Shown here: piece by piece, positions 1 through 37,614 of the stretch
How positions within the stretch are numbered: the stretch's first letter is position 1
Layout: every line of letters begins with the position of its first letter
Assembly: GCA_965248675.1 (NCBI GenBank)
Contig: CBDFJZ010000008.1
Span: forward strand, 1,533,256-1,597,255
Direction: 5' to 3'
DNA length: 64,000 nt
Origin: Dehalococcoidia bacterium
Lineage (GTDB): Bacteria > Chloroflexota > Dehalococcoidia > UBA2979
Made by a program: the position numbers and the translations under genes
Notes under the pieces: generated by a model
Told to the model about the DNA's origin: nothing
What the model saw: only the letters and a program-made list of their open reading frames with translations
Database searches by the model: none

Positions 1-1163
<1,163 letters not shown>

Positions 1164-2349: not shown

Positions 2350-2752
2350 TCAGCCCTCCTCGAGCTCGTCCGCCAAATGAGCACGGCGTTCGCGAAGCCC
2401 GAACACGAGGCCGGCTCCAAACGCTCCGTAGGCGGAGAGGAACACGAGCATCACCTGCCAGAGATGCGCGTAAGCATCGAACGTCAATACGAACAGCACA
2501 ACGCTTGCTGAGCCCGCAAGCTGTATCCAAATCGACCAACCCGCCGGAGCTGCATACACACCGGCCACCGCAGCGATCGCCAGTCCGTACACGAGCCGAA
2601 CCAGGAGCGGCGCGCTGAGGCCGGCGGCGCCGAAGACGAACGCCGGTCCGACTGACTAAGGCGAGCAAGATCGCCAGGCTCACGGCCCAGTATCGACGGT
2701 TCGTCTCGCCGATGACGAAGAAAATGACCAGGCTGCGCACGGTCCGCCACAT
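2350..2752 (-). pseudogene. Small multi-pass membrane protein, reading frame broken once
   Basis: ATG 2752: MWRTVRSLVIFFVIGETNRRYWAVSLAILLALVS. The hydrophobic continuation (GPAFVFGAAGLSAPLLVRLVYGLAIAAVAGVY...LRERRAHLADELEEG) is in another frame, which is track ORF 2350..2592. Shift near 2648..2656. Confidence 0.45.
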
Positions 2753-2854: not shown

Positions 2855-3418
2855 ATGGGAACGACGGTGACCCTCGAGCGCATCAGCCCGGATGGCGTGC
2901 ACGAGGCGCGGGGGTACACCCACGTCGTGAAGTTCGGCTAGGGACGCCTCGCCTTCATCTCCGGCCAGGTCGGCGTCACCCCCGACGGCGAGGTGGTGGG
3001 CGACGATCTCGAGGCGCAGACGCGCCAGGCGTTCGCCAACCTCGGCGCGGCGCTCGATGCGCTCGGCGCGACGCCCTCGGACGTCGCGAAGATCACGACG
3101 TTCGTCGTCAACTGGTCGCCCGATCTCCGCCCGGCGCTCACCGCGGGTCGCGTCGAGTTCTTCGGCGACGAGCCACCCGCGAGCACGTTGGTCGGCGTCC
3201 AGGCGCTCGCCACCCCGGCACTGCTCGTCGAGGTGGAGGCGACGGTCGTCCTGCCGGATCCGCTAGTACTGCAGCAGCGCTTCGATCGGATGCGGCGCCA
3301 GCGGCCCGCGGCCGCCGAGTTCCGTCAACTCGATCACGAATGCGAGCCCGGCCACCGTCCCACCGAGCTCCTGAACGAGGCGCACCGTCGCGGCCGCGGT
3401 GCCGCCCGTCGCCAATAG
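2855..3418 (+). pseudogene. RidA/YjgF-family deaminase with an in-frame TAG at 2939..2941
   Basis: ATG 2855: MGTTVTLERISPDGVHEARGYTHVVKFG[TAG]GRLAFISGQVGVTPDGEVVGDDLEAQTRQAF...LVEVEATVV, all in one frame. The track only shows the part after Met 2993. The 3' end is uncertain because the ORF runs on over apt. Confidence 0.7.
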
Positions 3419-3787
3419 ATCGTCGATCACAACCACCCGGTGCCCGGCGACCGACGGATCGCGATGCAGCTCGAGCGAATCCTGGCCGTACTCCAGCTCG
3501 TAGAAGACCGAGGCGCGGTCCGCGGGCAGCTTGCCTGGCTTCCGCACGGGGACGAACGGGAGATCGAGGCGTTCCGCCACGGGAACACCGAACAGAAAGC
3601 CGCGCGCCTCGATCCCCGCGATCAGGGTCGCCTCCCAGCCGCGCGCGGTCTCGGCGAGTCGATCGTTCGCTTCTCGGAGCGCGGCAGGGTCGTGGAGCAG
3701 CGGGGTGATATCACGAAACATGATCCCCGGCTGCGGAAAGTCGGGGATCGTGCGAATGAACGCATCGAGGTCGGCTGCGCTGGTCAT
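3263..3787 (-). CDS. apt: Adenine phosphoribosyltransferase
   Basis: 174 aa. IPDFPQPGIMFRDITPLL...IEARGFLFG...VVIDDLLATGGTA is the classic Apt PRPP-binding motif set. Confidence 0.9.
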   Translation of the reverse strand: MTSAADLDAFIRTIPDFPQPGIMFRDITPLLHDPAALREANDRLAETARGWEATLIAGIEARGFLFGVPVAERLDLPFVPVRKPGKLPADRASVFYELEYGQDSLELHRDPSVAGHRVVVIDDLLATGGTAAATVRLVQELGGTVAGLAFVIELTELGGRGPLAPHPIEALLQY

Positions 3788-6338: not shown

Positions 6339-6665
6339 ATGGCACACCCGACTGACACGAGCGACAGCACCTTTGATTCGGACGTGATCCAGTCAGATAT
6401 GCCAGTACTGGTGGACTTCTGGGCGCCGTGGTGTGGTCCGTGTCGCATGGTCGCGCCGGTCGTGGAGGAGCTCTCCGACGACTACGACGGCAAGGTGAAG
6501 TTCGTCAAACTGAATACCGATGAGAACCCGGTCGTGGCCGGCAAGTACGGGATCCGCTCGATCCCCACGCTGCTGATCTTCAAGGGCGGCGAAGCGGTCG
6601 GCCAGGTGATTGGCTTCCGCCCGAAGAGTGACCTGGCGAAGCACCTCGACGAGGTCGTCGCCTAA
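6339..6665 (+). CDS. trxA: Thioredoxin
   Basis: 108 aa. [15 protein letters not shown] active site and [13 protein letters not shown]. Confidence 0.95.
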
Positions 6666-6838: not shown

Positions 6839-7926
6839 GTGGAGCGCAAGCCTGTGGTGTCTGAATCTGAGCTTCTACTGCTCGACGCCGCGCTATCTGC
6901 GCACAGGTTGCAGCGGGTGGGGGAGCCCGAGCGGATCAGCGTCGGGACGCTCAACCGCAACTACCGCGTTCCAACCGACGACGGAGTGCTCTTCGCTCGA
7001 TGTCATCGCCCCGACCTCGAGGTCGACCGCATCCGACGGGAGCACGAGCTCGTGCGCTGGGTGGTCGATCACGATGTCCCGGCGACTCTGCCAGGTCACT
7101 TGCGAACGGCGAGACGGTGATCGAGGTAGGCGACAGTCGGTGGTCACTCTTTCCGTGGGTAGCGGGTCGCGTGCCCATTCGCGGTTCGATGACGCCTCGA
7201 GAGGCCGAGTCCATCGGCGCGGCGCATGGACTGACCCAACGGGCGCTGCTCGAGCATCCGGAATCGGCGGGGATCACCCTCCAGGGCTTGAGCGATCAAC
7301 TCGCCTGGGATACTGGTCGCTCCTTGGAAATGATCAAGCGAATCGAGCGTCAGGCGGCCCGCGCCCCCGAGCATCGAGCGGTGGTCGAGGTGCTCTCGTT
7401 TCAGCGTCAGCTACTGGAGAGCGGCGCGGCACGGTCCTTTTCCGAGTTGAGCGATCTTCCGTGCCAGCTGCTACACGGCGACTTTCACGATCAGCAGGTG
7501 CTGCTCGACGATGACGCCTCCGTGGTGGCGGTGGTCGACTGGGAGCTCATCCGACCGGCCGCCCGCGTGTGGGAGCTGATCCGTTCGCTGAGCTTCTCTC
7601 ACGTATTGGAAACCGATCTCCTGGAGCACTACGTCAGCGGCTTTCGGAGACACGTCGCGCTGACCGAGGACGAATGTCGCGGTGGGATCGAACTGTGGTG
7701 GCAGACGCGGCTGCACGGCACCTGGGTCTACGAGGCCTACTTCCTCGAGCAGAATGACCGGACCGGCCCGCTCTTCGAAGAGACGGTCGCCATCTCCGGC
7801 GCTTCGCGGATGAACGATGGCGAACCGAGATCGCGGATCGGCTCGCCGCCGCAAGCAAGCCGGCCACAACGTAGGTCGGCGCTCCAGCTCTGGATGGCAG
7901 CGGGTGGGCGAGCTCGCGCTAGATGA
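6839..7926 (+). pseudogene. Aminoglycoside/homoserine-kinase-type phosphotransferase (APH family), frameshifted
   Basis: N-terminal part is in ORF 6839..7120 (GTLNRNYRV...). The rest is in ORF 7000..7926 (LANGETVIEVGDSRWSLFPWV...LLHGDFHDQQVLLDDD..VVAVVDWE, the Brenner/DxD motifs). Shift near 7085..7105. A second shift near 7785 is possible (alternative tail HLRRFADERWRTEIADRLAAASKPATT*). Confidence 0.6.
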
Positions 7927-8470
7927 TGTTGCGCGGCTCGTTCGTCGCGCCGCCCCCACGCCGAGCGTCTGAGGGGCTCTCAGCCGAACCGTCTTCGGCC
8001 CCGTCGGCGCGGTGGCCCTTCTCCACGCGCCGCCCCTGCTTCTCCTCGAGGCGCATCAGCGCGCGGCCCTTGTCCGGGTGCGGATCCGCACGCATCCCGT
8101 AGGCCTCGCGGCCTTCGTGGTCCTCTGGCAGGTGTTCGGTGACGGGAAGACCTTCCTCGTCGCAGAACAGCAGTCAGTGGCAGTATTTCCAGCGCTGCAT
8201 CTCCTCGCAGGGGCAGATCCAGATCTTCTTTTCGATCTCCTCCTGCTTGTCCTCGAAGAACATGCACGGGCAGAGCGGCTTGCCAACCTCGTCGATGTTC
8301 TTGGCGAGGCCGATCACCAGGAAGTCGGTGATCTCTCGCTGCGGGTGGAGGTAGCTGCCGCTCTTGTTCGCGAAGTTCTCCACGAACTTCGTCATCTTCG
8401 CGATGTTCTCCGGCGAGGCCTGCGCGAGATCCTCCTCGGACGGGCGGTCGATGGTCATGAGCACTCCCAA
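7919..8470 (-). CDS. Ferredoxin:thioredoxin reductase catalytic-subunit homologue with in-frame TGA (candidate selenocysteine) at 8176..8174
   Basis: KMTKFVENFANKSGSYL...GKPLCPCMFFEDKQEEIEKKIWICPCEEMQRWKYCH[TGA]LLFCDEEG... The TGA sits where the CPC/CPC/CHC motif needs its last Cys. My codon-by-codon translation shows the frame open for 84 more codons to TAG 7921..7919. Confidence 0.7.
8141..8161 (-). other. SECIS-like hairpin 12 nt downstream of the UGA
   Basis: mRNA 5'-GACG-A-GGAA-GGUC-UUCC-CGUC-3': 4 bp, a bulged A, 4 bp, and a GGUC tetraloop. The loop starts about 21 nt after the UGA. Confidence 0.55.
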
Positions 8471-8574
8471 TCGACCCGGCAGCGAGGCCGGGCGTTCATC
8501 CTATCGGACCCTTCGCCCCTCGGGATGCGCGAGTGGCCTCGGACGCGCGCGCAGGGCGTCGGTAGAATCGCGCG

Positions 8575-8671
8575 GGGAGTGGATCGTGACCGGTGTTGCG
8601 CGCGGTCTTCAAAACCGTTGTGGGGCTACGTCGTAGTCCTGGGTGGGTTCGACCCCCACGCACTCCCGCCA
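8575..8671 (+). tRNA. selC: tRNA-Sec (anticodon UCA)
   Basis: 97 nt, folded by hand. Acceptor GGGAGUG(G)/(G)CACUCCC. D-arm CGUGAC-CGGU-GUUGCG (6-bp stem, 4-nt loop). Anticodon arm GCGGU-CUUCAAA-ACCGU. About 24-nt variable arm. T-arm GUGGG-UUCGACC-CCCAC. G73 and an encoded CCA. Confidence 0.85.
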
Positions 8672-8800: not shown

Positions 8801-8925
8801 GTGAGCGAGACAGAGCGACTCTTCGAGGGCGTGCGGATCGTCGAGTTCGGGCAATACGTCGCCGTCCGTACGCGGCAGAGCTATTCGCTCACGGCGGAGC
8901 GGACGTCGCGGTCCTCGGCGAGTAG
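8801..8925 (+). pseudogene. 5' remnant of a family III CoA-transferase gene
   Basis: GTG 8801 preceded by GAAGGAGG: MSETERLFEGVRIVEFGQYVAV. After a shift at CC 8866..8867 it reads PYAAELFAHGGADVAVLGE then TAG. Only about 41 codons remain of a gene that is normally about 400 codons. Confidence 0.5.
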
Positions 8926-8953
8926 CGCGCGTCCCTCGAGCCGCGGGCGTGAT

Positions 8954-9937: not shown

Positions 9938-11176
9938 CTACGAAACAACGCCCGCGCCCCGCAACTGCTCGAGGCGCTCGGCGCTGAATCCGAGGTCCGA
10001 CTCGAGAATCTCGTCGGAGTGTTCGCCCATCAGCGGCGCGCGCTGGATCGGCACGCGACTGCCGGACATCCGTGGTCCCCAGCCGAGCAGCCTGATCTCG
10101 CCGTGCTCGGGATGATCGAGCGTGTGCACGAACCCGCGCTCATTGAGGTGTTCGTCGCGGAACAGATCGCGCGTGTCGAAGTTCTTGCCGACGGGGACGC
10201 CGGCTTCACCGAGGATCCGCATCACCTCGTGCTTCGTGTGTCGCTGCGTCCACTCCGCCACGATCTCGTAGAGCGCATCGGCGTTGGTGATCCGCGCCTC
10301 GATCGTGTCGAAGCGCGGGTCCGAGGCGAGCTCCGGCTGCCCGATCGCCTGCGCCAGCGCCACCCACATGTGCGGCCGGGAGCACATCACGAACGCGTAG
10401 TCGTTCGGGCCGCGCGGCCCGAACGACTCCTGGGGCTCGGCGGGCCCGCACGGGTAGAGGTTGGTGGTCGCCGTACCGCCGTTGCCGTTGCGCTGTGCCA
10501 CGGCGTTGCCCCAGTCAGCGCCAATCGCCACCTGCGTGCGCATGTAGTAGGTCATCGCCTCCTGCATCGAGATCTCGATGTGTTGGCCCTCGCCGGTGAC
10601 CAACTTCTGGACGTAGGCGGCGGTGATCGCGAGCGCGAGCTGCACCCCCGTGCCGGCATCGCCGACCGTCGGGCCGGGGCGCATCGGTGGTCCGTCCGCA
10701 TCGCCGGTGACCGAGAATGCGCCCGCCGTCGCCTGGGCGACCATGTCGAAGCACTTGTAGTCGGAGTACGGCCCCGAGGTGCCGAACCCCTTCAGTTGCG
10801 CGTAGATGATGCTGGGATTCGCCTGCTTCATCGCGTCGTAGCCGATCTCCAGCCTCTCGACGACGCCCGGCCCGTAGTTCTCCACGAAGACGTCGTAGTG
10901 CGGCGCCATGTCGAGGATGATCTGTCGCCCCTCGGGCTGCTTGAGGTCGAGCACGATGCTCCGCTTGTTGCTGTTCCAGTTGATGAAGTACGGCGCGTTG
11001 CCCTCACCGCGGGCTCCACCGCGCCCTGGATCCCCAAACCCCGGCGGTTCCACCTTCACCACGTCCGCGCCGAGCCAGGCGAGCGCCTGCGTGCACGACG
11101 TCCCCGCCTCGTACTGCGTCATGTCGAGGACGCGCAGACCCTGGAGGGCTGTGTCCTGAGTCGGTTGGCTGGTCAT
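9938..11176 (-). CDS. Family III (CaiB/BaiF) CoA-transferase
   Basis: LQGLRVLDMTQYEAGTSCTQALAWLGADVVKVEPPGFGDPGR...VGDAGTG. The track ORF extends to 11257; Met at 11176 is preferred. Confidence 0.85.
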   Translation of the reverse strand: MTSQPTQDTALQGLRVLDMTQYEAGTSCTQALAWLGADVVKVEPPGFGDPGRGGARGEGNAPYFINWNSNKRSIVLDLKQPEGRQIILDMAPHYDVFVENYGPGVVERLEIGYDAMKQANPSIIYAQLKGFGTSGPYSDYKCFDMVAQATAGAFSVTGDADGPPMRPGPTVGDAGTGVQLALAITAAYVQKLVTGEGQHIEISMQEAMTYYMRTQVAIGADWGNAVAQRNGNGGTATTNLYPCGPAEPQESFGPRGPNDYAFVMCSRPHMWVALAQAIGQPELASDPRFDTIEARITNADALYEIVAEWTQRHTKHEVMRILGEAGVPVGKNFDTRDLFRDEHLNERGFVHTLDHPEHGEIRLLGWGPRMSGSRVPIQRAPLMGEHSDEILESDLGFSAERLEQLRGAGVVS

Positions 11177-11427
11177 CGCGCGTCTCCTCGGAGCGTCATC
11201 GGTTGTCGAGGCGGCGTCGGTGTTCGAGGGGGGGTCAGCGGAGCCGCTGCGGCTCACCTGTCCGCGGTCGAGAAGATCGAGCGCTCGCCCAGCGGGAGCC
11301 TAGCAGCACTCGGCCATGAGCCCCCGAGGTTCGATCCCTGCGCAGCCCGGCCACCAGCCTCGAGCGGTGAAGCGTCTAACCGCGGCGATCGCTCGCGGGC
11401 GCTGCCAGGCGGCCGCCGCGATGCGAG

Positions 11428-12693
11428 CTAATCGTCCCCGTGGGCTTCCTTCACCTGCGCAAAAGCGATATCGGTCACCGCCAGCGTGCGCTCGATGTCT
11501 TCGTCGCTGTGCGCCGTCGAGATGAACCAGTTGTGGGTCGGGTGCAGGTAGACGCCACGCTTCGCTGCTTCGCCTGTGAACATCATCGCCCGCGGGATCT
11601 CCATGTTGGCGGGATCGTCGCCCACGAAACGCAGCGCCGGGACCTGGACCGGGCCGGCCTGCTGAATCGCGATCCCGTGCGCCTGGGCCTGCGCATCCAA
11701 CCCCTCGCGCAGCAGCGTGCCGGCGCGCCTGATCTGCGCCGTGCCATCCGTCTCCTGCAGCGTCGTGATCGTCGCGATCGAGGCGGCCATCGCCACCCCG
11801 GAGAACCAGTACGAGCCGGTCGCGAAGAACTGTCCGGCCGCCTCCTCGAGCTCCCGCTTCGCGACGACCGCTGAGAGCGGGTAACCGTTGGCGATCGCCT
11901 TGCAATAGGCGGAGATGTCGGGCTCGATGCCATACGACGCCCAGCTACCGCCGAGGTCGAGGCGGAAGCCGGCGCGCACGTCGTCCAGCACGAGCACCGC
12001 ACCGGTCGCGTCGCAGAGGTCGCGCACGCCTTGCACGAACTCCTGGTCGGGCGCCGTCCAGGTCCCCGTTGCGTCGTATTCCACCGCGGATACGACCACC
12101 GCCGCGAGGTCGTCGCCGGCCTCGTCCGCCGCGGCACGCACGCTCTGCAGATCGTTGTAGGTATAGGTGAGCTGGAAGTTGGCGTCGGAGGGCGTCATGC
12201 CGGCAGCGCCGCTCATCCAGGTCGATCCCCAACCGTGGTAGGCGCGCTCGCCTCGAAGCGTGGTGCTCTTGCCCGTCTTGGTGCGGGCGACCTGCAGCGC
12301 GAAACGCGTCGCGTCCGAGCCGTTCTTCGCGAACCATGCCCAGTCGCCATGGTCGATCAAGCCGGTCATCAACTCGGCTAGCTCGATGATTCGCTCCGTC
12401 GGTGCGTTGAAGCAGTCGCCCTCGGCCGATTGCGCGGCTACGGCCCGCTCCACGCTCGGATGACGGTGCCCGAGGACGATCGGGCCGTAGGAGCACATGT
12501 AGTCGATGTACTCGTTGCCGTCGGCGTCCCAGATGTGGCTGCCCTCGCCACGCGCGAAAAACTGCGGGAAGCCCTCGGGCAGCCTCGTCGCGGACTGGTG
12601 ACCGTACATGCCGGCCGGCAGCACCGCCGCCGCGCGCTCCCGCAATGCCGCGTCCCGGTCGTAGCTGTTCAGCCGTTCATCCGTCGCGGTCAT
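11428..12693 (-). CDS. Class III PLP aminotransferase (GSA-aminomutase-like)
   Basis: 421 aa. YIDYMCSYGPIVLGH...NGSDAT...YHGW...VLVLDDVRAGFRL...AYCKAIANGYPLSAV (PLP-Lys). Confidence 0.85.
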   Translation of the reverse strand: MTATDERLNSYDRDAALRERAAAVLPAGMYGHQSATRLPEGFPQFFARGEGSHIWDADGNEYIDYMCSYGPIVLGHRHPSVERAVAAQSAEGDCFNAPTERIIELAELMTGLIDHGDWAWFAKNGSDATRFALQVARTKTGKSTTLRGERAYHGWGSTWMSGAAGMTPSDANFQLTYTYNDLQSVRAAADEAGDDLAAVVVSAVEYDATGTWTAPDQEFVQGVRDLCDATGAVLVLDDVRAGFRLDLGGSWASYGIEPDISAYCKAIANGYPLSAVVAKRELEEAAGQFFATGSYWFSGVAMAASIATITTLQETDGTAQIRRAGTLLREGLDAQAQAHGIAIQQAGPVQVPALRFVGDDPANMEIPRAMMFTGEAAKRGVYLHPTHNWFISTAHSDEDIERTLAVTDIAFAQVKEAHGDD

Positions 12694-12961: not shown

Positions 12962-13338
12962 CATTCTGTCACCATCCGCGCAGAGACAGGCGTCGGCATC
13001 CGCAACGCCGCGATCGCGATGACGCTCGTCTGGTGGCCCGGCTGCGCGCGGCTGCTCCGGGGCCAGTTCCTCGCCGTGAAGACCTGCGATCACGTCGTCG
13101 CCGCCGAGTCGTTGGGCGCCAGCCGTCTGCGTCTCATGGCCAGACACATCCTGCCGATCGCCTTCACGCCGCTGCTGGTCGTTTCGACCATCGACCTCGG
13201 CGGCGTCGTGCTGCTGGCCGCCTCACTGAGCTTCATTGGCCTGGGCGCCGTCCACCGTTCCCCGAGCGGGCGCGACGGGACCTTCTCGCTCGGCGCGACG
13301 CGCGCGGCCATCTACCCTCCCGCGCGGCGAATCGCTGA
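12962..13338 (+). pseudogene. 3' remnant of a DppC/OppC-type ABC permease
   Basis: GIRNAAIAMTLVWWPGCARLLRGQFLAVKTCDHVVAAESLGASRLRLMARHILPIAFTPLLVVSTIDLGGVVLLAASLSFIGLGA, then the frame is lost (PPFPE appears in another frame). No N-terminal two-thirds is present. A stop lies at 12959..12961. Confidence 0.55.
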
Positions 13339-13512
13339 CCGGCAGCCGAGCCGATGCACGCCAGTCCGGACGGCAGATCGATTCAGCAGACGTGGGCTCC
13401 GGCCCTGACGCAGTTCGGTCCTCGCGTTCGCCTACCGTCGAGGTAGTCTGGCCGCCTCGGCCGTGTGAGCGCCGCCCGAGGCACGCGTCGAACGTCAGAC
13501 CTGGAGGCAGCG

Positions 13513-14415: not shown

Positions 14416-14859
14416 ATGGGCGAAATGACAACTCGATCGCTGCCCGATGTGCTCGTGTCCATTCCCGAGGGCGTCCTCGATCTGAGCTGGGGACACCCAT
14501 CGCCCCGGCTGCACGCCGTCGGAGCGATTCGGGACGCCGCGGCCCACGTCCTGGAGCTGAACGGCGTGGTTGCCCTGCAATACGGCGCGGAGCAGGGGTT
14601 CGGCAAGCTATTGGAGTCCCTCGCCGCGTTTCTGTCAGCGCAAGACGCCTACGCGATGCAGGTGGAGCCGGAGTCCCTGTTCATGACCGCGGGCGCCTCG
14701 CAGGCGCTCGACCTCGCGTGCACGGCGCTCGCGCAGCCCGGCGACACGATCTTTATCGAGGAGCCCACCTATTACCTCGTCTCGCCCTTTACGAGGTCGA
14801 TCAACTCGAGGAGGCCATTGAGCACCTCTCCCGCGCGGTGGCGGCGTATCCGGGATTAG
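14416..14859 (+). pseudogene. Class I/II aminotransferase with a large internal deletion
   Basis: The N-terminal ~120 aa (...LQYGAEQGFGKLLESLAAFL...LFMTAGASQALDLACTALAQPGDTIFIEEPTYYL) is followed, in a shifted frame, by only a C-terminal-looking tail LALYEVDQLEEAIEHLSRAVAAYPGLAP*. About 250 codons appear to be missing. Confidence 0.5.
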
Positions 14860-15902: not shown

Positions 15903-17183
15903 GTGGCGTGGATTGCGTATGTTATTGAGCAGCAACCGCGGACGGAGGGTCCGCAGGGAGGTGTTCCAGTGGTTGATTTCGCAGACACGCCAGAGATGGC
16001 CACGTTCCGCGACGAAGTCCGAACCTTCGTCAAGCAGCACCATCCGCGGCGGCTCGCCGCCGAGGCGATCTACGACACCGGCTGGGGCAACGACATCGGC
16101 ACGCTCACTCGCGAGCAGCGCGAGGAGCTGATCGCGCCCTGGCGCGCCGCGATGTCGGAGCAGGGCTGGATCTCGCCGGCGCTGCCGAAGGAGTACGGCG
16201 GCGCCGACCTCTCGCCGATCGAGCAGTTCGTCCTCAACGAGGAGTTCGCGAGTCTCGACGCCACCACGGTCGGCATCCGCCAGGACCTCGTCTCCGTCCT
16301 GATGCTCTACGGCACGGACGAGCAGAAGGCCGAGCACCTGCCGGGCCTGCTCTCGGGCAAGGTGCGCTGGGCACAGGGCTACTCGGAGCCGGGCTCCGGC
16401 TCCGATCTCGCCTCGTTGCAGACGCGCGCCACGCGCGACGGCGACGAGTTCGTCGTCAACGGGCAGAAGATCTAGACCTCCGGCGCACACCGTGCGCACT
16501 GGCTGTTCGGGCTCTTCCGCACCGACCCGGAGGCGCCGAAGCATCGCGGGATCTCCTACCTGCTGATGAAGATGGACACCCCCGGCATCACGCCGCGGCC
16601 GATGGCCCAGATGACCGGTGCGGCGGAGTTCAACGAGGTCTTCTTCGAGGACGTGCGCGTCCCCGCCAACAACCTCATCGGCGAACTCAACCGCGGCTGG
16701 TACGTCGGCGCTACGCTGCTCGACTTCGAGCGCTCCAGCATCGGCAACGCGATCGGCACGCAGAGGACCCTGGACGGGCTGCGCACGCTGCTGGTGGACG
16801 AGCAGCGCGCGAACAGCGGCCGTTCGAGGCTCGGCGAGCCCTCGGTGCGCTCCGCCCTCGCCGACCGCTACGTCGACGCCGAGGTCGCCGCGCTCTTCTC
16901 GTACCGCGTGTTCACGATGCACAACCGCGGCCTCGTTCCCAACTACGAGGCGTCGGTCGGCAAGATCTTCAACACGGAGATGATGCAGCGGATCGGCAAG
17001 ACCGCGATGACCGGCCTCGGGCTGTACGGGCAACTCGCCGGGACGGACGACGACTACACACCGATGCGATCGCGCTGGCAGCAGTACTACATGGGTGCGG
17101 TCGCCGCCACGATCGGCGGTGGCACCTCGGAGATCCAGCGCAACGTCATCGCCACCCGCGGCCTCGGATTGCCGAGGGGCTAA
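15903..17183 (+). pseudogene. Acyl-CoA dehydrogenase interrupted by one in-frame TAG (16473..16475)
   Basis: ORFs 15903..16475 and 16566..17183 share one frame with no other stop between them. The junction reads FVVNGQKI[TAG]TSGAH, where ACADs have the conserved Trp (GxKxW[IT][TS]xG). Confidence 0.8.
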
Positions 17184-17194: not shown

Positions 17195-18835
17195 TCACCT
17201 CGAGACGTGCGCGTGGCTGCGGTTGAATCCCGGGCTCCACTGCGCGGGGTCGACCGGGAATGGAAGCACCCCGATCCGCCGGGTCCAGTCGTCATACGAC
17301 TGGATCATCCGGTCGGCCTGGGAGCGATTCCGCTCGGCGAGGTTGTTCAGCTCGGTCCGGTCCTCGTCCATGTCGTAGAGCTCCCACTCGCCCTCGATCT
17401 CGCTCACGAGCTTCCAGTTCTCCGCGCGCATGGCGCGGCTGCCCTCGTGCTCCCAGAAGATCGGCCGCTCGCGCGTCCACTCGCCCCGCTCGATCAGCGG
17501 TAGGAAGCTCTCACCCTCGATCGGCGTGATCTGGTGGCCGTTGAACTCCGAGGGGTAGCTCGCCCCGGCCGCGTCGATACAGGTCGCGCTGATGTCGATC
17601 AGGTGCGTCGGCTGGTGGACGATGCGGGCCTCATTGATCCGTCCCGACCACGACACGATCAGCGGCGTCGAGATGCCGCCCTCGTGCACCCACCGCTTGA
17701 ACAGGCGGAAGGGCGTGTTGCTCGCGTTGGCCCAGGGCATGTCGTAGCTCATGAAGGTGTCTGCCGGGCCCGGACGCAGCTCCGGGTCGTTGCCGACTTT
17801 CATCTGCCGCCCATCGCGCAACGGCATCGCGTACCGCGACGGCGGGACCGCCGGCCCATCCTCCGCGAGGAACTCCGCGCAGCCACCGTTGTCCGCCAGG
17901 AACATGATCAGCGTGTTCTCGAGCATCTCGCGCTCGCGCAGCCTGGCGAGGATGCGTCCGATCCCCTGGTCCACCCGGTCGATCATGGCGGCGTACACCG
18001 CCATCCGCAGGTCCTCCCAGTCCCGGTTCGGTACGTCGCCCCAGTCGGGCGAGTCCTCGTGCCGAGGTGAGATCTCCCACTTGGAGTCGAGGATCTTCAT
18101 CCCCTTCAGCTCCTCGTGGCGGTTCGTTCGTAGCGTGTCCCAGCCCTGGCGGTACTTGCCTTCGTACTTCGCGATCTCCTCCTCGGGCGCGTGGAGCGGC
18201 CAGTGCGGCGCCGTGTAGGTGACGTGCAGGAAGAAGGGCCGATTGTCCTCGGCCGCATCGTCGATCATCTGCGCGGCGTTGTCGCTGATCGCGTCCGTGA
18301 GGTAGAAGTCGTCGCCCAGCGTATCGAGGTCGATCAGCGTGTCGTCGCGCATCAGCGTCAGCGGGCTGAAGTAGTTCGCCGCGCCCGCCACAATGCCGAA
18401 GAACCTGTCGAAACCACGCTGCGTCGGCGTCGGATGCGTGGTGGCGCCCGGCGTCCACGAGGCGGGGTCCATCAGGTCGTACCCACCGCCGACGTGCCAC
18501 TTGCCGGTCATGAGCGTCGTGTAGCCCTGCGAGCCCAGCACCTCGGCGATCGTCACGCAGCTCTCGTTCAGATACCCCTGGTACGCGGGCATTCCGAGGT
18601 CCGCAACCATGTGCCCGACGCCCGTCTGTTGAGGATTCAGCCCGGTCAGCAGCGCGGCGCGTGACGGGCAGCAACGCGCTGAGTTGTACATCTGCGAGAA
18701 GCGCAGCCCGCCCGCGGCGAGGCTGTCGAGGTTGGGCGTGGCGATCTCGGAGCCGTAACAGCCGAGGTCGGAGAACCCCATGTCGTCCGCCAGGATCACG
18801 ATGATGTTCGGACGGGACTTTGGCTCCTGCGTCAT
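17195..18835 (-). CDS. Arylsulfatase (formylglycine-dependent)
   Basis: 546 aa. NIIVILADDMGFSDLGCYG...SARCCPSRAALLTG (C-x-P-x-R FGly motif)...GKWHVG. Confidence 0.9.
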   Translation of the reverse strand: MTQEPKSRPNIIVILADDMGFSDLGCYGSEIATPNLDSLAAGGLRFSQMYNSARCCPSRAALLTGLNPQQTGVGHMVADLGMPAYQGYLNESCVTIAEVLGSQGYTTLMTGKWHVGGGYDLMDPASWTPGATTHPTPTQRGFDRFFGIVAGAANYFSPLTLMRDDTLIDLDTLGDDFYLTDAISDNAAQMIDDAAEDNRPFFLHVTYTAPHWPLHAPEEEIAKYEGKYRQGWDTLRTNRHEELKGMKILDSKWEISPRHEDSPDWGDVPNRDWEDLRMAVYAAMIDRVDQGIGRILARLREREMLENTLIMFLADNGGCAEFLAEDGPAVPPSRYAMPLRDGRQMKVGNDPELRPGPADTFMSYDMPWANASNTPFRLFKRWVHEGGISTPLIVSWSGRINEARIVHQPTHLIDISATCIDAAGASYPSEFNGHQITPIEGESFLPLIERGEWTRERPIFWEHEGSRAMRAENWKLVSEIEGEWELYDMDEDRTELNNLAERNRSQADRMIQSYDDWTRRIGVLPFPVDPAQWSPGFNRSHAHVSR

Positions 18836-21627: not shown

Positions 21628-22812
21628 TCACGCGGTCACAGGCGAGCCGCTACGCGCCTCCGCAGTCCGGAACGCCGGCATCACCGCGCTCGCGAACAAC
21701 TCGAGCTGCTCGATGATCACCCGCTCTGGCGTCCCCATGCTCGCCTGCACGTTCACCATCTCCATCCCTGGACAGGCATCCGCGAGCTCCTCGAGGTACT
21801 CGACGAAGCCCTCGGGCGGCCCGCAGTACCAGCTCCGGCTCTCGCACGCCTCCTCGAGGCCAGGAATGCCTGCCTCTGCCCAACCGCCTCGCTGGGCGAC
21901 CGCATCCAGCTGTTCGTCGCTCAGACCTCGGAAGAAGCCGAGCGGCGCGAACATCTTGATGTGTTCCTCGTAGAAGGGCGTCGCCTCCTTGATCGCCTGC
22001 TCCTTCGTGTCGGCGATGTGGAAGTTGACGCCGATCGCCAGCCCCGTGCCCAGCTCCGCCTCGACCCCGGCGCGCGCGAGTGCGTCGCGGTACGCCGCGA
22101 CCGGCCCCTCCGACATCAGCGCCGAGCCGCCGCCGACCACGCCCTTGATCCCGTGCTTGACCATGAAGTCGAGGCCGCGCTCGCTCGCACTCACGATCGG
22201 TTGCCAGCACTCCACCGGGTGCGTCGGCCGCGGCACCAACGACAGCTCCTCCAGCTCGTACCCGCGGTACGGCACCCGCGGCGGCAGGTCGTAGTGCTTG
22301 CCGTGGTGCGAGAATGACTCGTTCTTGAAGGCCTTGAAGATGATCTCGGTCTGCTCTTCGAAGTAGTCGCGGTTCTCGTCCTGGTCGAGCATCGGCCCGC
22401 CCAGGCTCTCGACCTCCCGCGTGTGATACCCGCGGCCCAGCCCGAACACGATCCGCCCGTCGGTCAGGATGTCCGCCGTCGCATAGTCCTCGGCGAGCCG
22501 CAGCGGGTGCCACATCGGCGCGATGTTGAACCCGCAGCCGATCTTCAACCGCTCGGTCAGGTGCGCCAGGTGCACGCCCAGCATCAGCAGGTTGGGAATG
22601 ACCTCGTAGCCCTCGTGCTGGAAGTGATGCTCCGCTATCCACAGCGTGTCGTAGCCGTGCTCGTCCATGCAGCGCGCCATCGCTTCCGCCTTGTCGAACA
22701 CCGTCGCGAGGTGCTCGTTGGAAAAGCGGCGGTCGTTGACCGGCGTCGCGTCCTGCCCCATGTCTGGCAGGTCGACGTGCCCGGCGTAGAGGGAAGAGAA
22801 GCGCGTGATCAT
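21628..22812 (-). CDS. LLM-class (luciferase-like) flavin-dependent oxidoreductase
   Basis: YDTLWIAEHHFQHEGYEVIPNLLMLGVHLAHLTERLKIGCGFNIAPMWHPLRLAEDYATADILTDGRIVFGLGRGY. Confidence 0.85.
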   Translation of the reverse strand: MITRFSSLYAGHVDLPDMGQDATPVNDRRFSNEHLATVFDKAEAMARCMDEHGYDTLWIAEHHFQHEGYEVIPNLLMLGVHLAHLTERLKIGCGFNIAPMWHPLRLAEDYATADILTDGRIVFGLGRGYHTREVESLGGPMLDQDENRDYFEEQTEIIFKAFKNESFSHHGKHYDLPPRVPYRGYELEELSLVPRPTHPVECWQPIVSASERGLDFMVKHGIKGVVGGGSALMSEGPVAAYRDALARAGVEAELGTGLAIGVNFHIADTKEQAIKEATPFYEEHIKMFAPLGFFRGLSDEQLDAVAQRGGWAEAGIPGLEEACESRSWYCGPPEGFVEYLEELADACPGMEMVNVQASMGTPERVIIEQLELFASAVMPAFRTAEARSGSPVTA

Positions 22813-24103: not shown

Positions 24104-26527
24104 CTAGCCCGGCGGCAGGTCCCCCGTAACCCCTGCCTCTACGAGGTCGTCGTACTCCTCACGCGTCACGCCCAGCTCCTCGTGGAACACCTCGAAGCTG
24201 TGCTCGCCCATATACGGAGAGTGGCGCACCAGAGGGATCGCGCGGCCGGAGAACCGCCACGGCGCGACCGCCATCGTGTCGAGGCCCGCCTCCGGGTGCT
24301 CCACCTCCGCCATGAACCCGCGGGCGACGAGCTGCGGCAGCGGGTCCTCGAGGACCTCCGCCAGCCGCATCACCGGCGCCGCGCAGCATCCGAGGGCGTT
24401 CAGCGCCCCAGTTGCCTCGCCGGCGTCCTGCTCCGCGCACCAGGCCTCGAGGATCGCGTCCAGCTCGTCCTCATGCCGCTTGCGCGCCGCCGCGCTCGCG
24501 AAACGCTCGTCCGAAACCAGCTCCGGCATGCCGAGGTGACCCGCCAACGCGCGCCACGCCTCCTCGCTCTCGGCTGCCAGGGCGAGCCAGCGGCCGTCGC
24601 GCGCGGCGTAGATGCCGTGCGGCGCGACGGCCGGATGCCGGTTGCCCATCGGCCCGCGGGTGTTTCCGTTCGCCGACCACTCGAGCACCGCGTCCCCGAG
24701 TTGGGCAGTCATCGCCTCGATCATCGAGAGGTCGATGTATTGCCCCTCGCCGCTGCGCGCACGGTGGTGTACTGCCGCGAGGATCGTCGACGCCAGGTAC
24801 ATCCCCCCGACTGGGTCCGGGATCAGGCCGCCAGTGTTCGCCGCCGGCCCGCCCTCGTAGCCGTGCAGCGAGGAGAGACCGGACATCGGCTCGATCGAGC
24901 CCCCGTTCGCCGGGTACTGCGCGTAGGGCCCGGTCGCGCCGTACCCGGAGAGCGAGGCGAAGATCACATCCGGGCGCTGCTCGCGGAGCGTCTCGTAGGT
25001 CACGCCCCAGTGCGCCATCACGTGGGGGCTGAAGCTCTCGGCGAAGACGTCGAAGCGAGGCACCAGCCGCCAGAACAGTTCGGCCCCGCGCGGATCGCTC
25101 ATGTCGAGGGTGATCCCGCGCTTGTTGAGGTTGGTCCCGTTGAACAGCCCCATCACGTTCCAGGCGCGCTGGGTCCGCGCCGGATCGAGCATGTGCTCCG
25201 GCAGCGCCGCGTCGTACCCGCCGGAGTACGTGCGCCACACGTCCGGCCGCCGCCGCGCCTCGATCTGGACGACGTCGGCACCGAGGAGGGCGAGCAGCTC
25301 GGTCCCCAGCGGTCCCGACCACGCCTGCGTGAACGTCAGCACCCGCATCCCCGCCAGCGGCGCCTCGGCGGGAGCGGGCTTCGCCCCCGTCACCAGCGGC
25401 GCGGCCGCCGCGCGCGCGGGCGCCGGCTCACCCTCGCCATCCCCAAGGCCGGGCGCCGGCTGGTGCAGCCGCCACGGTGTCGCGCTCAGCGTCGCCGGGG
25501 CGCCCGGCATCCGCGCCGAGCGCCCATCGACCACCGTCTCCGCGAAGTACCCGCGCGCCTGGAGGTGCGGGTTCTCGAGGAGGTCGGCCGTGTCCTGCAA
25601 CACGCCGGACACGGAGCGGACCGTCGACAGCGCCTCGAACAGCTCCCAGCGCGGCATCTCCGCGACGCGTTCCGCGATCCGAGGCCGGATCGCGGTCAGG
25701 TGCTCGCGGCGTCGCACGGGATCGTCAAACCGGTCGTCGGCCAGCTCCGACAGGCCGAGCACGTGCATCGCGTCGGTCCAGAACAGACCCTGCCCGAACC
25801 CCGCCAGGATCGGGCCGTCGAGCGCCTCGAGGAACCCCGGGCCGTCGCGGTGGTGTACGTGTACCCGCGCCGTGTAGCCCTCGGGCCCCTCGTAGATCAC
25901 CGCCAGCGACCACGGCACCGAGCTGACGATCGCCGCCTCGAGCTCGCTCGCGTCCACGAGCGCGCCCTCGCCCGAGGTCGTGCGACGCACGACCGCGCCG
26001 GCGGCGCCGACGAAGGCGGCCACCCCGGCGATGTAGTCGAACTGGCGCGCTGGAAGCTGGAGTGGCGGCTCGCCCTCGAAGCCGCAGATGTCGGCCCAGC
26101 CGCTCAGCGCCGAGTGGGTGAGGCTATTCGCTGGCGCGCCGGCCAGCGGGCCGTCGAGGCCGAACGGCGTCACCGAGACGTGCACCGCGTCCGCCCGTTT
26201 CGCCTCGAGCGCGTAGCGCAGCGAGGGCGGCCATGGGACGGCCGTCGTCACGATCACGTCGGCCTCGGCAACGTGGCGCTCCAGCTCCGACGCGTCTCCT
26301 GGTGCGATCAACGATCGCTTGTTCGCGTTGACGTACGCGTGCACCAGCGAGCGATCGGGCCCCGGCACGTCGTCGAGGAACGGCGGTTCCGAGCGCAACG
26401 GATGGCCCTCGGGCGGTTCGAGCAGCAGCACGTCGGCCCCGTAGTCGCCGAACAGCCGCGCGCAGTAGGCGCCCGACAGGCGGTCCGAGAGATCCAGGAC
26501 GCGCAGGTCCTCGAAGGCGCCGGACAT
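24104..26527 (-). CDS. Tandem-fused double family III CoA-transferase (807 aa)
   Basis: Two CaiB/BaiF modules in one ORF: MSGAFEDLRVLDLSDRLSGAYCARLFGDYGADVLLLEPPEG... and ...LAGMRVLTFTQAWSGPLGTELLALLGADVVQIEARRRPDVWR...IPDPVGG. Start Met 26527 lies 12 nt after the upstream stop. The track ORF 24104..26890 overlaps the carboxylase. Confidence 0.8.
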   Translation of the reverse strand: MSGAFEDLRVLDLSDRLSGAYCARLFGDYGADVLLLEPPEGHPLRSEPPFLDDVPGPDRSLVHAYVNANKRSLIAPGDASELERHVAEADVIVTTAVPWPPSLRYALEAKRADAVHVSVTPFGLDGPLAGAPANSLTHSALSGWADICGFEGEPPLQLPARQFDYIAGVAAFVGAAGAVVRRTTSGEGALVDASELEAAIVSSVPWSLAVIYEGPEGYTARVHVHHRDGPGFLEALDGPILAGFGQGLFWTDAMHVLGLSELADDRFDDPVRRREHLTAIRPRIAERVAEMPRWELFEALSTVRSVSGVLQDTADLLENPHLQARGYFAETVVDGRSARMPGAPATLSATPWRLHQPAPGLGDGEGEPAPARAAAAPLVTGAKPAPAEAPLAGMRVLTFTQAWSGPLGTELLALLGADVVQIEARRRPDVWRTYSGGYDAALPEHMLDPARTQRAWNVMGLFNGTNLNKRGITLDMSDPRGAELFWRLVPRFDVFAESFSPHVMAHWGVTYETLREQRPDVIFASLSGYGATGPYAQYPANGGSIEPMSGLSSLHGYEGGPAANTGGLIPDPVGGMYLASTILAAVHHRARSGEGQYIDLSMIEAMTAQLGDAVLEWSANGNTRGPMGNRHPAVAPHGIYAARDGRWLALAAESEEAWRALAGHLGMPELVSDERFASAAARKRHEDELDAILEAWCAEQDAGEATGALNALGCCAAPVMRLAEVLEDPLPQLVARGFMAEVEHPEAGLDTMAVAPWRFSGRAIPLVRHSPYMGEHSFEVFHEELGVTREEYDDLVEAGVTGDLPPG

Positions 26528-26538
26528 CACCAGATTCC

Positions 26539-29500
26539 CTACCAGGTCGGCACGCTGGGCCGGCGGCCACGCCGGATCGGCTCGGACTGTGCCGCCAGCA
26601 GGCCCTGGGTGATCCAGTGCCGCGTCTCCACCGGATCGATGACGGCGTCGATCTTGAACGTCGATGCGGCGTTGAGCGCGCCGCCTCGCTCGTAGGCCTG
26701 CTCGACCAGCCGTTCGTACTCCGCGGCGCGCTCGCCGATGTCCTCGATCGCCGCGAGCTGATCGCGGTTCGACAGGCGCACCGCCGCCTCGAGGTTCATC
26801 CCGCCAAACTCCGCCGTCGGCCAGGCGACGGTGAACGAGGGCGCCCGCTCGTTCCCGAACAGGATCGTGTTCGAGCCGAGGCCGTAGCACTTGCGCAACA
26901 CCACACTGAACCGTGGCGTCTTCACGTTCCCCAGCGTCACGATCAGGTTGCTCGTGCGACGCACCAGCGCCGTCTTCTCCGCCTCAGGCCCGATCATCAT
27001 CCCCGGCGTGTCCACGAGCGTGAGCAGCGGAATGTTCCAGGAATCGCAGATTTTGGCGAAACGCGCCGCTTTGTCGGATCCGAAACTTTCGATCGACCCA
27101 CCCAGGTGCTCGTTGTTGTTCGCGATCACCCCGACCGGGCGGCCCTCGACGCGGACCAGCGCGGTCACCATGCCGTGCCCGTACTCCGGGCGCAGCTCCA
27201 GCACTGACCCGCTGTCCGCCATCAGCTCGATCACGCTCCGCACGTCGTACGCGCTGAGCCGGTTCTCCGGGATCGCGTGGCGCAACAACCGCTGGTCGGC
27301 GCATTCCCAACTTTTCACGGATCCCTGGAAGTACGACAGATACCGCTTCGCCACCCCAATCGCCTCAGCTTCGCTCTTGACGAGGATGTCGACCGTGCCC
27401 GCCGGCACCTGCTCCGACATCGGGCCGATCTCCTCGGGCAGGTAGACGCCCATCCCGCCGCCCTCGATCACCGCCGGCCCGCCCATGCCGATGTTGGCGT
27501 CCTCGGTCGCGATGATCACGTCGCAGATCCCGAGGATCGCGGCGTTGCCGGCGAAGCAGCGGCCGGCCGTCACGCCGATGATCGGCACCGTCCCGCTCAG
27601 GCGCGCCATCAGCTCCCAGGTGCGGAACACCATCCCCGGCATCCCGTCGGTGTCACCGGAGCGGCCGCCCGCGCCCTCGGCGATGAAGATCAGCGGCAGC
27701 GCGAACTCCCCGGCGACCTCCATCATCCGGTCGGTCTTCGCGTGGCCTCGGATGCCCTGCGTGCCGGCGAAGACAGTGTCGTCGTACGAGATCACCGCCG
27801 TCCGCGCCCGCTTCTCGTCGAACAGGGTGCCGTTCACCGCACCGATCCCGGAGACCAGCCCGTCGGCCGGCGTCTTGCGCACCAGCTCCTCCAGCGTGCT
27901 GCGCCGGCTCTGCCCGGCGATCACGAGGTCGCCGTACTCGATCCACGTCCCCTCATCCACGAGGTCGGCGAGGTTCTCTCGCACCGTCCGCCGGTTCTTC
28001 GCGTGGCGCCGTTCGACCGCCTCGGGCCGGTTCTCGTCGAGCAGGAACGGCCGCCGGTCGAGCACCGCCTGCAGATCGGGGCGGATGTAATCGATCGCCG
28101 CTGGGGCCTCGCCGGCCTCCGCGGGGCCGCCGACGTCCGCCTCCTCGACGAAGGCCAGCGGGTGATCCTCGTAGACCGTATCGCCGACCGCGACGGCGAG
28201 CCGGCGCACGATGCCGCCCAGCGGCGAGCGCACGAGGTGCTCCATCTTCAGCGCGTCCATGACGCAGACGACCTGCCCCTCGCGGACCGTGTCGCCCTCG
28301 GCGACGAGGATCTCGCGGATCGTGCCCTGGATCGGTGCCCGCAGCGGCGCGGTGTTCGGCGGTCCGATTGGCTCCGGCTTGTCGCCGCGGGCGCCCATCG
28401 TCACCACGTCGGCGGCGTCGCCGGAGCGGTAGAAGTCCAGCCCCGCCAGCGGGTCGAGCGGTCCTTCGGGAGCGCGCGCCGGCTCCGAGGCTGTCGCGGT
28501 CAGCAGCTCCGCCGCGTGCACGTCGATCCAGCGCGTGTCGATCCGCCCCGCCGCGAAGTCGTCGTGCGCGATCACCGCGCGTAGGAACTCTAGGTTAGTC
28601 TCGGCGCCGGCGATGCGGAACGCCCCGAGCGCCAACGCCAGGCGCCTGACGGCGCTCCCGGAGTCCGCCGACGTCGAATGCGCGATCACCTTCGCCAGCA
28701 GCGAGTCGAACGCGGGGCTCGAGGCGTAGCCGGCGTATCCGTTCGTGTCGACGCGCGTGCCCGGCCCCGAGGGCGGCAGAAACACCGTCAGCGTCCCACC
28801 GGCCGGGCGCACGCCGCCGTCTGCCTCCATCCGTTCGAGATTCACGCGCGCCTGGATCGCGTACCCATGCGGCGCCGGCGTCTCATCTAGCCCAAGCGCG
28901 CCCAGCGTCTCGCTTCCGGCGATGCGCAGCTGCGCCTGGACGAGGTCGACGCCGGTCACCTCCTCGGTGACCGTGTGTTCGACCTGCAGCCGCGCGTTCG
29001 CCTCGATGAAGACGCAGTCGCCGCCGTCGAGGTCAACGAGGAACTCGAACGTGCCGAGGCCCTCGTAGCCGGCCGCTTCGGCGAGCCGCACGGCATACGC
29101 GGTGATCGCCTCGCGCACCTCGGCGCTCAGCCACGGACTGGGCGCGATCTCGATCAGCTTCTGGTGACGCCGTTGCACGCTGCACTCGCGCTCGCCAAGG
29201 TGACGCACCGCCCTCGCGCCGTCGGCGATGATCTGTACCTCCACGTGCCGTGCCCGCTCGATCAGCCGCTCCGCGTAGACGCTGTCGTTACCGAACGCGT
29301 TCAGCGCCTCGGACTGGCAGCGCGCCAGCGCCTCCTCGATCGCCGCCGCGTCGGTCACCACGCGCATGCCGCGCCCGCCGCCACCGCCGACCGCCTTGAG
29401 GATCATCGCGGCGCCGTCGCCCAGCCCCGCGAAGAAGGTACGTGCCTCGTCGAGGCCGACCGCGCCATCGCTCCCCGGCAGCACCGGCACGCCGTGCTCC

Positions 29501-36322: not shown

Positions 36323-36357
36323 AGGCGAGCGCAGCAGCGCTAGACAGGAGATCCGCC

Positions 36358-37614
36358 ATGCCGGAGCCACTCGAGGGCATCAAAGTCGTGGAGCTGGCGC
36401 GCGCGCTGCAGGGCCCCGTCGCCGGACAGTACCTCGCCGATATGGGCGCCGACGTCATCAAGGTCGAACCCGCGCTCGGCGACGCGAACCGCCGTGTGCG
36501 CAGCCCCTTCATCGATCCGACCGAAGGCGGATTCGGTACCCAGTTCGTCAGCGCCAATCGAGGCAAGCGCTCGCTCTGGCTCGACCTCCGCCGCGAGCAG
36601 TCGATCGATATCGTCCGCCAGCTCGTCGACGGTACCGACGTCTTCCTGAGCAACTATCTGGAGCCGTCCCTGCTCGCGATGAAGCTCGGCTACGACGACC
36701 TGCGCGAGCGCAACCCGGACCTCGTCTACGCGTTGGTCAACGGCTACGGCCCGGTCGGCCCGGACGCGGCGAAGCGCATGCTCGATGGCTCCGCCGCCGC
36801 TCGCGGAGGCCTCTACAACGTCACCGGCCCAAGCGACGGCGGCCCGATGATTCCTGGTTCCACGATCGCCGATACCGCCGGCGCGATGCAGCTCGCGCTC
36901 GGGATCACGACCGCCCTCACGGCGCGGGCGCTACACGGCGGCAGTCAACGCGTCGATACCTCCGGCCTCGGCGCGCAGCTCTGGCTGCAGAAGTGGGAGC
37001 TCGACACCGTCTCACTGACCGGCGATCGCCTCTCCCGCCAGGGCCCGCATAGCGCCAACATCCCGGGCACCTACGGCCTCTACGAGACCTCGGACGGTGC
37101 GATCATGATCGCTTACATCGCCAACGAGGCGGACTGGATCGAGTTCTGCCGATTCGCCGGCCTCGAGGAGCTGATCGCAGATGAGCGGTTCGACACCGGT
37201 CTGAAGCGGGCAGGCTGGGCGCCCGATGGCGGAAAGAGCGAGACTTCGTACGAGATCCGCCCCTACCTCGAGCGCGCCTTCAAGGCGAAGAGCACCGCAG
37301 AGTGGACCGAGTTCCTCGGTGGGCTGACGAAGGTCGTCTGGGACGTCGTCCAGGACTACGAGCAGGTGCTTGGCGATCCCCAGGCGATCGCCAACGGCTA
37401 CTTCGTCGAGCAGGACATCCCCACCGTCGGCCAACGCCGCCTCGTCGGAAACACCGTGCACATCAATGGCGACACCGGACGGGCGAAGCCGCGGCCACCC
37501 GCCCTCGGTGAGCACAACGAGGAGATCCTCGCCTCGCTCGGCTACGACGCCGCCGCGATCGAGGAGATCACCGCCGCCGCCCGCGCAGCTATGAAGCAGC
37601 GGCTCGGCGCTTGA
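36358..37614 (+). CDS. Family III CoA-transferase
   Basis: AGGAG RBS then ATG 36358: MPEPLEGIKVVELARALQGPVAGQYLADMGADVIKVEPALGDANRR...IADTAGA. The track ORF 35830..37614 has a spurious 5' extension. Confidence 0.85.
   Translation: MPEPLEGIKVVELARALQGPVAGQYLADMGADVIKVEPALGDANRRVRSPFIDPTEGGFGTQFVSANRGKRSLWLDLRREQSIDIVRQLVDGTDVFLSNYLEPSLLAMKLGYDDLRERNPDLVYALVNGYGPVGPDAAKRMLDGSAAARGGLYNVTGPSDGGPMIPGSTIADTAGAMQLALGITTALTARALHGGSQRVDTSGLGAQLWLQKWELDTVSLTGDRLSRQGPHSANIPGTYGLYETSDGAIMIAYIANEADWIEFCRFAGLEELIADERFDTGLKRAGWAPDGGKSETSYEIRPYLERAFKAKSTAEWTEFLGGLTKVVWDVVQDYEQVLGDPQAIANGYFVEQDIPTVGQRRLVGNTVHINGDTGRAKPRPPALGEHNEEILASLGYDAAAIEEITAAARAAMKQRLGA

Follow-up and report, generated by a model that had tools for sequence, protein, structure and literature searches.

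The 97 nucleotides at 8575..8671 are a genuine and ordinary selC gene, detectable by standard tools. They lie in a 64-kb stretch of DNA that was analyzed as a whole and is called the window here. We hold it highly probable that the locus represents a functional selC of an uncultured Dehalococcoidia (Chloroflexota), with a selenocysteine (Sec)-encoding client gene of the ferredoxin-thioredoxin reductase (FTR) family 116 nt away, an adjacency that reflects inherited gene order, and a -10-only promoter that is probably its own. The selC gene confirms the UGA in the neighbouring FTR-like gene, hereafter Sec-FTR, as a sense codon. The conserved divergent synteny of selC and Sec-FTR in one Dehalococcoidia sublineage, the invariant G.G pair of the tRNA and the fixed position of the -10 box are modest new points. 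The features are presented in Table 1.

Table 1. Features of the window discussed in the text (positions counted from the first letter of the window).
Feature	Position	Strand	Evidence
selC, tRNA-Sec gene with UCA anticodon, G discriminator and encoded CCA	8575..8671	+	ARAGORN, RF01852, covariation
Selenoprotein gene, FTR catalytic-chain family (Sec-FTR)	7919..8458	-	PF02943, alignment, PDB FTR chains, third-position GC
In-frame UGA, codon 95 of Sec-FTR, read as Sec	8174..8176	-	alignments
SECIS-like hairpin GACGAGGAA-GGUC-UUCCCGUC	8141..8161	-	minimum-energy fold
TAGAAT, -10-like promoter hexamer (-12..-7 from G1); promoter function putative	8563..8568	+	sequence, position statistics
Thioredoxin gene in the conserved block, presumed substrate of the FTR-like enzyme	6339..6665	+	TIGR01068
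CoA-transferase family III remnant, 41 codons, just downstream of selC	8801..8926	+	N-terminus LFEGVRIVEFGQYVAV, then degenerates
CoA-transferase family III, sulfatase and other catabolic genes (joint list)	9938..11257, 24104..26890, 33917..36322, 35830..37614; 17195..18835; 45107..46300; 21628..22812		

Identity and fold of the tRNA

The preliminary description had recognized the tRNA-Sec form in the 97 nt and had proposed ARAGORN as a check. The program detected two tRNAs in the window and returned one of them as tRNA-SeC at exactly 8575..8671(+), with the anticodon tca at position 35. The Rfam tRNA-Sec model RF01852 matched 8575..8667 over its full length with 70.8 bits (E = 1.8e-12; gathering score of 47) and was the sole hit of clan CL00001 retained at this position. 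ARAGORN, RF01852 and the covariation presented below agree on this identity.

The acceptor stem comprises seven Watson-Crick pairs (1-7 with 87-93, G1-G7 / C87-C93), and at the eighth position G8 stands opposite G86, a non-standard pair. The D arm CGUGAC/GUUGCG forms six pairs under the loop CGGU, the anticodon loop is CUUCAAA (UCA, 7 nt, nt 33-39), and the variable arm (nt 46-68) carries a stem of up to eight pairs. The T stem GUGGG/CCCAC, of five pairs, is followed by the discriminator G94 and the encoded CCA. Each of these elements had been described before, as an acceptor of 7 bp with G.G at the eighth position, a 6-bp D-stem with the CGGU loop of E. coli selC, a UCA anticodon loop, a paired variable arm of about 24 nt, and a 5-bp T-stem with G73 and CCA. 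All were found as described in the sequence, the anticodon loop also by ARAGORN and the likeness of the D arm after a check of the E. coli sequence.

Since the folding energy of single sequences was uninformative, with an unexceptional z of -0.94 for the tRNA and a z of -0.86 for the SECIS-like hairpin of the neighbouring gene, we used comparative evidence. Thirteen homologous tRNA-Sec genes from related loci, 11 of them distinct, were aligned. Over the 11 distinct sequences, 95.7% of the cells of the cloverleaf held standard pairs and 11 pairs were changed on both sides; none of 500 shuffles matched any observed measure, and slid controls were 45-56% paired. The compensatory changes were mostly found in the D stem and the variable stem. 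The D stem (columns 11-16 / 21-26) was paired in 100% of the cells, with three pairs changed on both sides and an invariant CGGU loop, and the eight pairs of the variable stem were 97.7% paired, with five changed on both sides. The anticodon loop was invariant in the 13 homologues, as was G94 before the CCA among the aligned genes. All 11 distinct tRNAs possess a T stem of five pairs and G.G at the eighth acceptor position. As this G.G occurs everywhere, the bacterial 8/5 layout is kept with a conserved mismatch as its eighth layer, and the eight-pair acceptor stem that defines bacterial tRNA-Sec is present in the window selC only formally.

We compared this gene with the E. coli selC, whose sequence was verified by 100% identity in 5,425 E. 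coli genomes. Both tRNAs share the UCA anticodon in a CUUCAAA loop, the six-pair D stem with its 4-nt loop CGGU, the long paired variable arm, the five-pair T stem, the G discriminator and the encoded CCA, and both genes are monocistronic with a promoter of their own, a putative one in the window. They differ in the eighth acceptor pair (invariant G.G in window-type selC vs C-G in E. coli), in the position of the -10 box (-12..-7 vs -37..-32, where E. coli selC has TATAAT) and in the neighbour of the gene, which is a selenoprotein gene in the window and yicJ or an island integrase in E. coli.

The divergent FTR-like gene and its family

A UGA-interrupted FTR gene divergent from selC had also been claimed. 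We recovered it with an FeThRed_B domain, a UGA on an invariant Cys and a SECIS-like hairpin, and the claim holds. The gene comprises 179 codons, including one UGA, plus a stop codon, and its start codon lies at 8458 on the opposite strand, 116 nt from selC. The domain (PF02943) was matched with E = 2.2e-23 and 82.7 bits against a cut-off of 22, the FTR catalytic chains of the PDB were matched with E = 2e-20, and the motifs CPC, CPC and CH(C/U) aligned with those of homologues and of FTR structures. When 17 full-length homologues with Cys (54-70% identity) were aligned to it, the UGA matched the second, nearly invariant Cys of CHC, and conservation persisted after it (LLF..EGLP.TE.LP.DHEG..YG..DP.P..GRA). 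Codon third positions have a GC of 0.91 ahead of the TGA and of 0.83 behind it, and this TGA is the only in-frame TGA of the window with a coding signal on both sides. On the alignment and composition evidence, the neighbour is a real selenoprotein gene, with a UGA that would be decoded. A ribosome-binding site, GGGAG, was observed 6 nt before the ATG.

Aligned to solved structures, the UGA takes the place of Cys87 in the Synechocystis FTR catalytic chain 1dj7. The residue at this position binds the 4Fe-4S cluster in a reaction intermediate of plant-type FTR. A Sec at the Cys87 position would therefore make the protein a natural test case for selenium beside an iron-sulfur cluster.

The hairpin lies sixteen nt after the UGA and presents an apical loop GGUC at 8149..8152, 25-28 nt past the U of UGA. 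Of 85 unique Sec-FTR genes among the matches listed, 57 adopt this hairpin, with GGUC at the same distance, as their minimum-energy fold, and paired changes such as GAC/GUC to GAU/AUC were observed across these genes. RNAalifold applied to the 85 SECIS regions gave no useful consensus; the per-sequence folds gave one. The SECIS of E. coli fdhF also has a GGUC apical loop.

In the established bacterial pathway, tRNA-Sec would be charged with serine by SerRS, which recognizes G73 and the long variable arm; SelA would convert the serine to selenocysteine with selenophosphate from SelD, and SelB would deliver the tRNA to UGA codons with a downstream SECIS hairpin. One client would be the single-subunit FTR-like protein encoded 116 nt away on the other strand, with UGA for the second Cys of CHC and the GGUC hairpin. 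A Pfam scan of the about 60 ORFs of the window gave no match to selA, selB or selD. None of the three was present among the genes that separate selC from the FTR gene in the related loci L019, L042, L075, L102 and L123; these genes encode a thioredoxin reductase-like flavoprotein, a formyltransferase, a Maf/methyltransferase fusion, a DUF2851 protein, an epimerase and MFS transporters. The preliminary description had stated outright that the organism can decode UGA as Sec; because the 64-kb window contains none of selA, selB and selD, we infer Sec decoding in this organism, and the statement stands with indirect support.

No other recoded gene was found in the window. An acyl-CoA dehydrogenase gene (15903..17183, forward strand) is split by an in-frame TAG at 16473..16475, a site at which the family carries Trp (NGQKI*TSG). 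Contig L001 has an intact copy of 404 aa, and the copies on L002 and L003 are split. A recoding of TAG was rejected here, as a Trp codon is replaced and L001 is intact; either a nonsense mutation at strain level or an error of assembly accounts for the split.

The client of selC is a member of a selenoprotein family known since 2008, when two FTR selenoprotein sequences were reported from the GOS ocean metagenomes (Zhang and Gladyshev 2008, PMC2398784). Recent reviews list FTR selenoproteins with the motif CxU (PMC9312934, PMC13188914). The known members and the window protein have in common the FTR catalytic-chain fold family, the Sec in CHC (C-H-U) and a SECIS directly after the UGA. The model NF041072, "FtrB family double-selenoprotein" (CxU), describes proteins with two Sec, whereas the window protein has a single Sec and its CPC cysteines stay Cys. 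Membership in NF041072 was rejected on 50.2 bits against a cut-off of 160 and on the presence of one UGA only, and because of this score we place the window FTR in a different subfamily. Window-type members measure about 150-180 aa and carry a conserved C-terminal extension. In this subfamily, about 70 residues extend beyond the plant-type catalytic chain, with the pattern LPEDHEGRE.YG..DP.PDKGRAL.RLEE; in the window protein, they belong to the C-terminal tail encoded at 7919..8173 (reverse strand). A short conserved end, DEPRN(V/I)I, is common to the window FTR, L013, L041 and L123.

We scanned one genome per GTDB species for K-Y-C-H-TGA-L-L-F and obtained at least 120 stretches, which include at least 97 true Sec-FTR genes, nearly all in Dehalococcoidia or Chloroflexota MAGs. 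The selenium form of the window's FTR subfamily is widespread, with at least 97 species-level Dehalococcoidia/Chloroflexota genomes as compared to two sequences in 2008. MAGs of Dehalococcoidia that carry 46-49 selenoproteins have been described (PMC13326102). Gene callers miss the Sec, and public assemblies split the Sec-FTR gene into products of 94 aa and 58 aa; at least five ENA metagenome contigs encode an identical 94-aa product, truncated at the UGA, and share the gene order. The closest locus among the matches listed was L123, from a Chloroflexota MAG, with an FTR core 95% identical and a tRNA that differs by one base.

A -10-like hexamer at a fixed distance from the tRNA

As had been pointed out before, TAGAAT at 8563..8568 ends six bases (8569..8574) before the 5' end of the tRNA. 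In 10 of the 13 genome loci, the pattern TAnnnT was observed at -12..-7, and one further locus had it at -13, within surrounding sequences that are otherwise unalike. When metagenome loci were included, it stood at -12 in 31 of 90 unique selC genes and at -13..-11 in 42 of 90, among the matches listed, against a background of at most 6 of 90 at any other offset. Unlike selC, 14 non-Sec tRNAs from the same loci had their hexamers 14 to 55 nt upstream (-14 to -55), with 0/14 at -12. The 31 aligned upstream regions gave the consensus G-C-TAnnAT-C and no -35 signal. A consensus scan revealed no full sigma-70 -35/-10 promoter and no intrinsic terminator for selC; the lone terminator-like site was unrelated, inside the FTR gene and on the other strand. 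These data suggest that selC is probably transcribed from its own -10-only promoter, TAGAAT, and that transcription would start on the first base of the tRNA. On the FTR side, a possible -10 box was observed at 8497..8502, where the minus strand reads TAGGAT, 39-44 nt upstream of the ATG and some 60 bp away from the box of selC; in L013, TACGAT is similarly placed.

Since -12..-7 is the canonical position of a -10 hexamer, the predicted start is G1, and the tRNA-Sec would be leaderless. Whether initiation at a -10-only promoter, and not RNase P, sets the 5' end of the tRNA in the window clade and in a clade with linked selA and selB is, judged from hexamer positions, nearly an even matter for us, leaning slightly against. 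The conserved position would also be compatible with a start 1-2 nt away and a very short leader. The second clade is defined by a different selC type, with GGGAGCGGTC at the 5' end, which carries a -10-like hexamer, mostly TACCAT, at -13..-11 in 12/12 unique genes among the matches listed. In a motif scan, selA and selB were found only beside this type, which they follow (L150, L155, L177, L186, L193, L197, L240, L245 and other loci). Should the box act as a promoter, a selC-selA-selB transcript would open with this tRNA, without a leader. Actinobacteria-like selC-selA-selB loci resemble the window selC in having a -10-like hexamer near the tRNA and differ from it in the presence of selA and selB after the tRNA; among the matches listed, 22 window-type selC loci extend 1.5 kb or more past the tRNA, and selA was found in none of them (0/22), with selB and selD likewise missing from the DNA beside selC. 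A selC-selA-selB transcript has been discussed for mycobacteria (PMC13449736).

Leaderless tRNAs and the window selC have in common a promoter at a fixed distance and a predicted start that coincides with the mature 5' end. Eukaryotic tRNA-Sec is leaderless and transcribed from an upstream promoter. In addition, all tRNAs of Nanoarchaeum equitans are transcribed leaderless (PMC10100707). Unlike these known systems, the window selC has a bacterial sigma-70-type -10 box and a start site that is predicted. For E. coli selC, the published start is at -25, and RNase P removes the 25-nt leader at an atypical site (PMC12439589; PMC13449736). A literature search for a bacterial leaderless tRNA-Sec returned nothing. 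If true, the leaderless reading would provide a bacterial counterpart of the eukaryotic tRNA-Sec and the Nanoarchaeum tRNAs and could bypass the atypical RNase P cleavage demanded by the 13-layer acceptor/T stack; if confirmed, this would be the first bacterial tRNA with a 5' end set by transcription initiation. In one Dehalococcoidia group (L075 4815..5280 and L125 6097..6619), selC lies 13 nt after the stop codon of a thioredoxin gene and has no -10 box. From this position behind the thioredoxin gene, the tRNA must be processed, and it is presumably cut out of a thioredoxin transcript.

Gene order and alternative readings of the locus

In one Dehalococcoidia sublineage, we observed a conserved block of methyltransferase, plsX, thioredoxin, Sec-FTR and selC genes, into which csoR-like and APH genes are inserted in the window. 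The thioredoxin matched TIGR01068 with 132.9 bits (cut-off 96.8), and a thioredoxin gene was found near Sec-FTR and selC in L001-L005, L019, L042, L075, L115, L123 and L125. In L002, a metagenome variant of the locus, the APH-kinase gene that separates FTR from thioredoxin is interrupted by an IS element (11400..12649, HTH_Tnp_1 and rve genes).

To describe the association, the window's FTR subfamily was taken as the CPCMFF type, with 17 loci of 44-72% GC among the matches listed. Only loci with enough upstream DNA were counted, distances were taken from the UGA, many flanks are clipped by the 8-kb blocks, and related genomes in these counts are not independent samples. Among the matches listed, selC was present within 800 nt upstream in 6/13 loci of the window subfamily vs 0/72 of other subfamilies, within 2.8 kb in 7/9 vs 1/51, and within 5 kb in 5/5 vs 3/26. 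No selC was found in the 0.8-3.3 kb of upstream DNA available for five loci of the same subfamily (L023, L043, L063, L064 and L124). In the reverse direction, we examined 66 unique metagenome selC loci picked by the conserved 3' half of the window tRNA. The preliminary description had judged the adjacency unlikely to be coincidence. This stands for the window's FTR subfamily, with its conserved divergent synteny across genomes of 44-70% GC, and not for the wider set, as most other Sec-FTR genes have no selC nearby and only 3/66 selC loci have an upstream Sec-FTR, among the matches listed. The divergent selC/Sec-FTR pair is well above random expectation and is read as gene order that was inherited, at the margin of a conserved block: selC would end the block, with variable DNA beyond it.

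A functional unit, in which a shared divergent control region would co-regulate selC and Sec-FTR, for example by selenium or redox state, is an alternative that we regard as rather unlikely. The constant divergent layout is in its favour, with an offset of 430-453 nt between the UGA and the tRNA midpoint kept across genomes of 44-70% GC, as is the observation that selC, where found near Sec-FTR, was always upstream and on the opposite strand, and never downstream of the FTR gene or on its strand, among the matches listed. However, beyond the -10 hexamer, inspection by eye revealed no obvious motif common to the intergenic regions, L123 and L019 tolerate 1-2 kb of inserted DNA between selC and Sec-FTR, and selC stands behind a thioredoxin gene instead in L075 and L125. 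The counts given above point the same way, as all 72 Sec-FTR genes of other subfamilies are without selC within 800 nt and Sec-FTR is upstream of only 3 of the 66 related selC loci, in both cases among the matches listed. A mobile element integrated at the tRNA, which would have brought selC or the FTR gene along, is highly unlikely in our estimation. selC is a classic integration site, with an integrase gene 196 nt after selC in E. coli O157; L151, L152 and L201 carry partial duplicates of the selC 3' part at a distance of 1.9-6.7 kb from the tRNA copy, and in the window the gene order shifts right after selC, where a gene remnant lies. By contrast, the last 26 nt of the tRNA matched only once in the window, even with three mismatches allowed, no integrase was detected among the scanned neighbours of selC, and the FTR side is the conserved side, the other being variable.

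A tRNA-Sec-like molecule with a different identity (a Cys-recoding tRNA of the selC* type, an allo-tRNA or a plain opal suppressor, for example) would accommodate the conserved G.G at the eighth acceptor pair and the absence of the Sec-machinery genes from the window. We consider it extremely unlikely in view of the discriminator G, an identity element of Ser/Sec tRNAs, where the selC*-type tRNA-Cys carries U73, together with the architecture shared with E. coli selC (6-pair D stem with its 4-nt loop, long variable arm, 5-pair T stem), a score well above the Rfam tRNA-Sec cut-off, and a client with a SelB-type SECIS hairpin and its GGUC loop.

Downstream of selC, synteny ends at the CoA-transferase remnant, which is a called gene of 41 aa with a weak PF02515 match in L001, L002, L004 and L005, and the gene order past selC differs between relatives. 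Further along, we observed a 129-aa ABC-permease fragment (13019..13408) and a truncated class I/II aminotransferase (14416..14859); the aminotransferase measures 393 aa in L001, and the window seems about 740 bp short of it. Judged from these fragments, the DNA past selC seems to be decaying or rearranged. A selC-linked genomic island in the window was rejected, with no repeat of the tRNA 3' end and no integrase among the scanned neighbours. In relatives, partial 3' duplicates of tRNA-Sec, from the anticodon loop to the CCA, were found at 3384..3477 and 5276..5373 of L151, and partial 3' duplicates also at 2514..2543 and 9261..9290 of L152 and at 92..121 and 4150..4179 of L201. Such duplicates are a typical signature of small elements, which would have integrated at selC in these relatives.

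Elsewhere in the window, many genes encode CoA-transferases of family III, and two of these enzymes have a double domain and a length of 800-930 aa. The window further carries genes for a sulfatase together with its formylglycine-generating enzyme, for several enoyl-CoA hydratases and for a luciferase-like monooxygenase, a catabolic repertoire that we take to be reminiscent of SAR202-type Chloroflexota.
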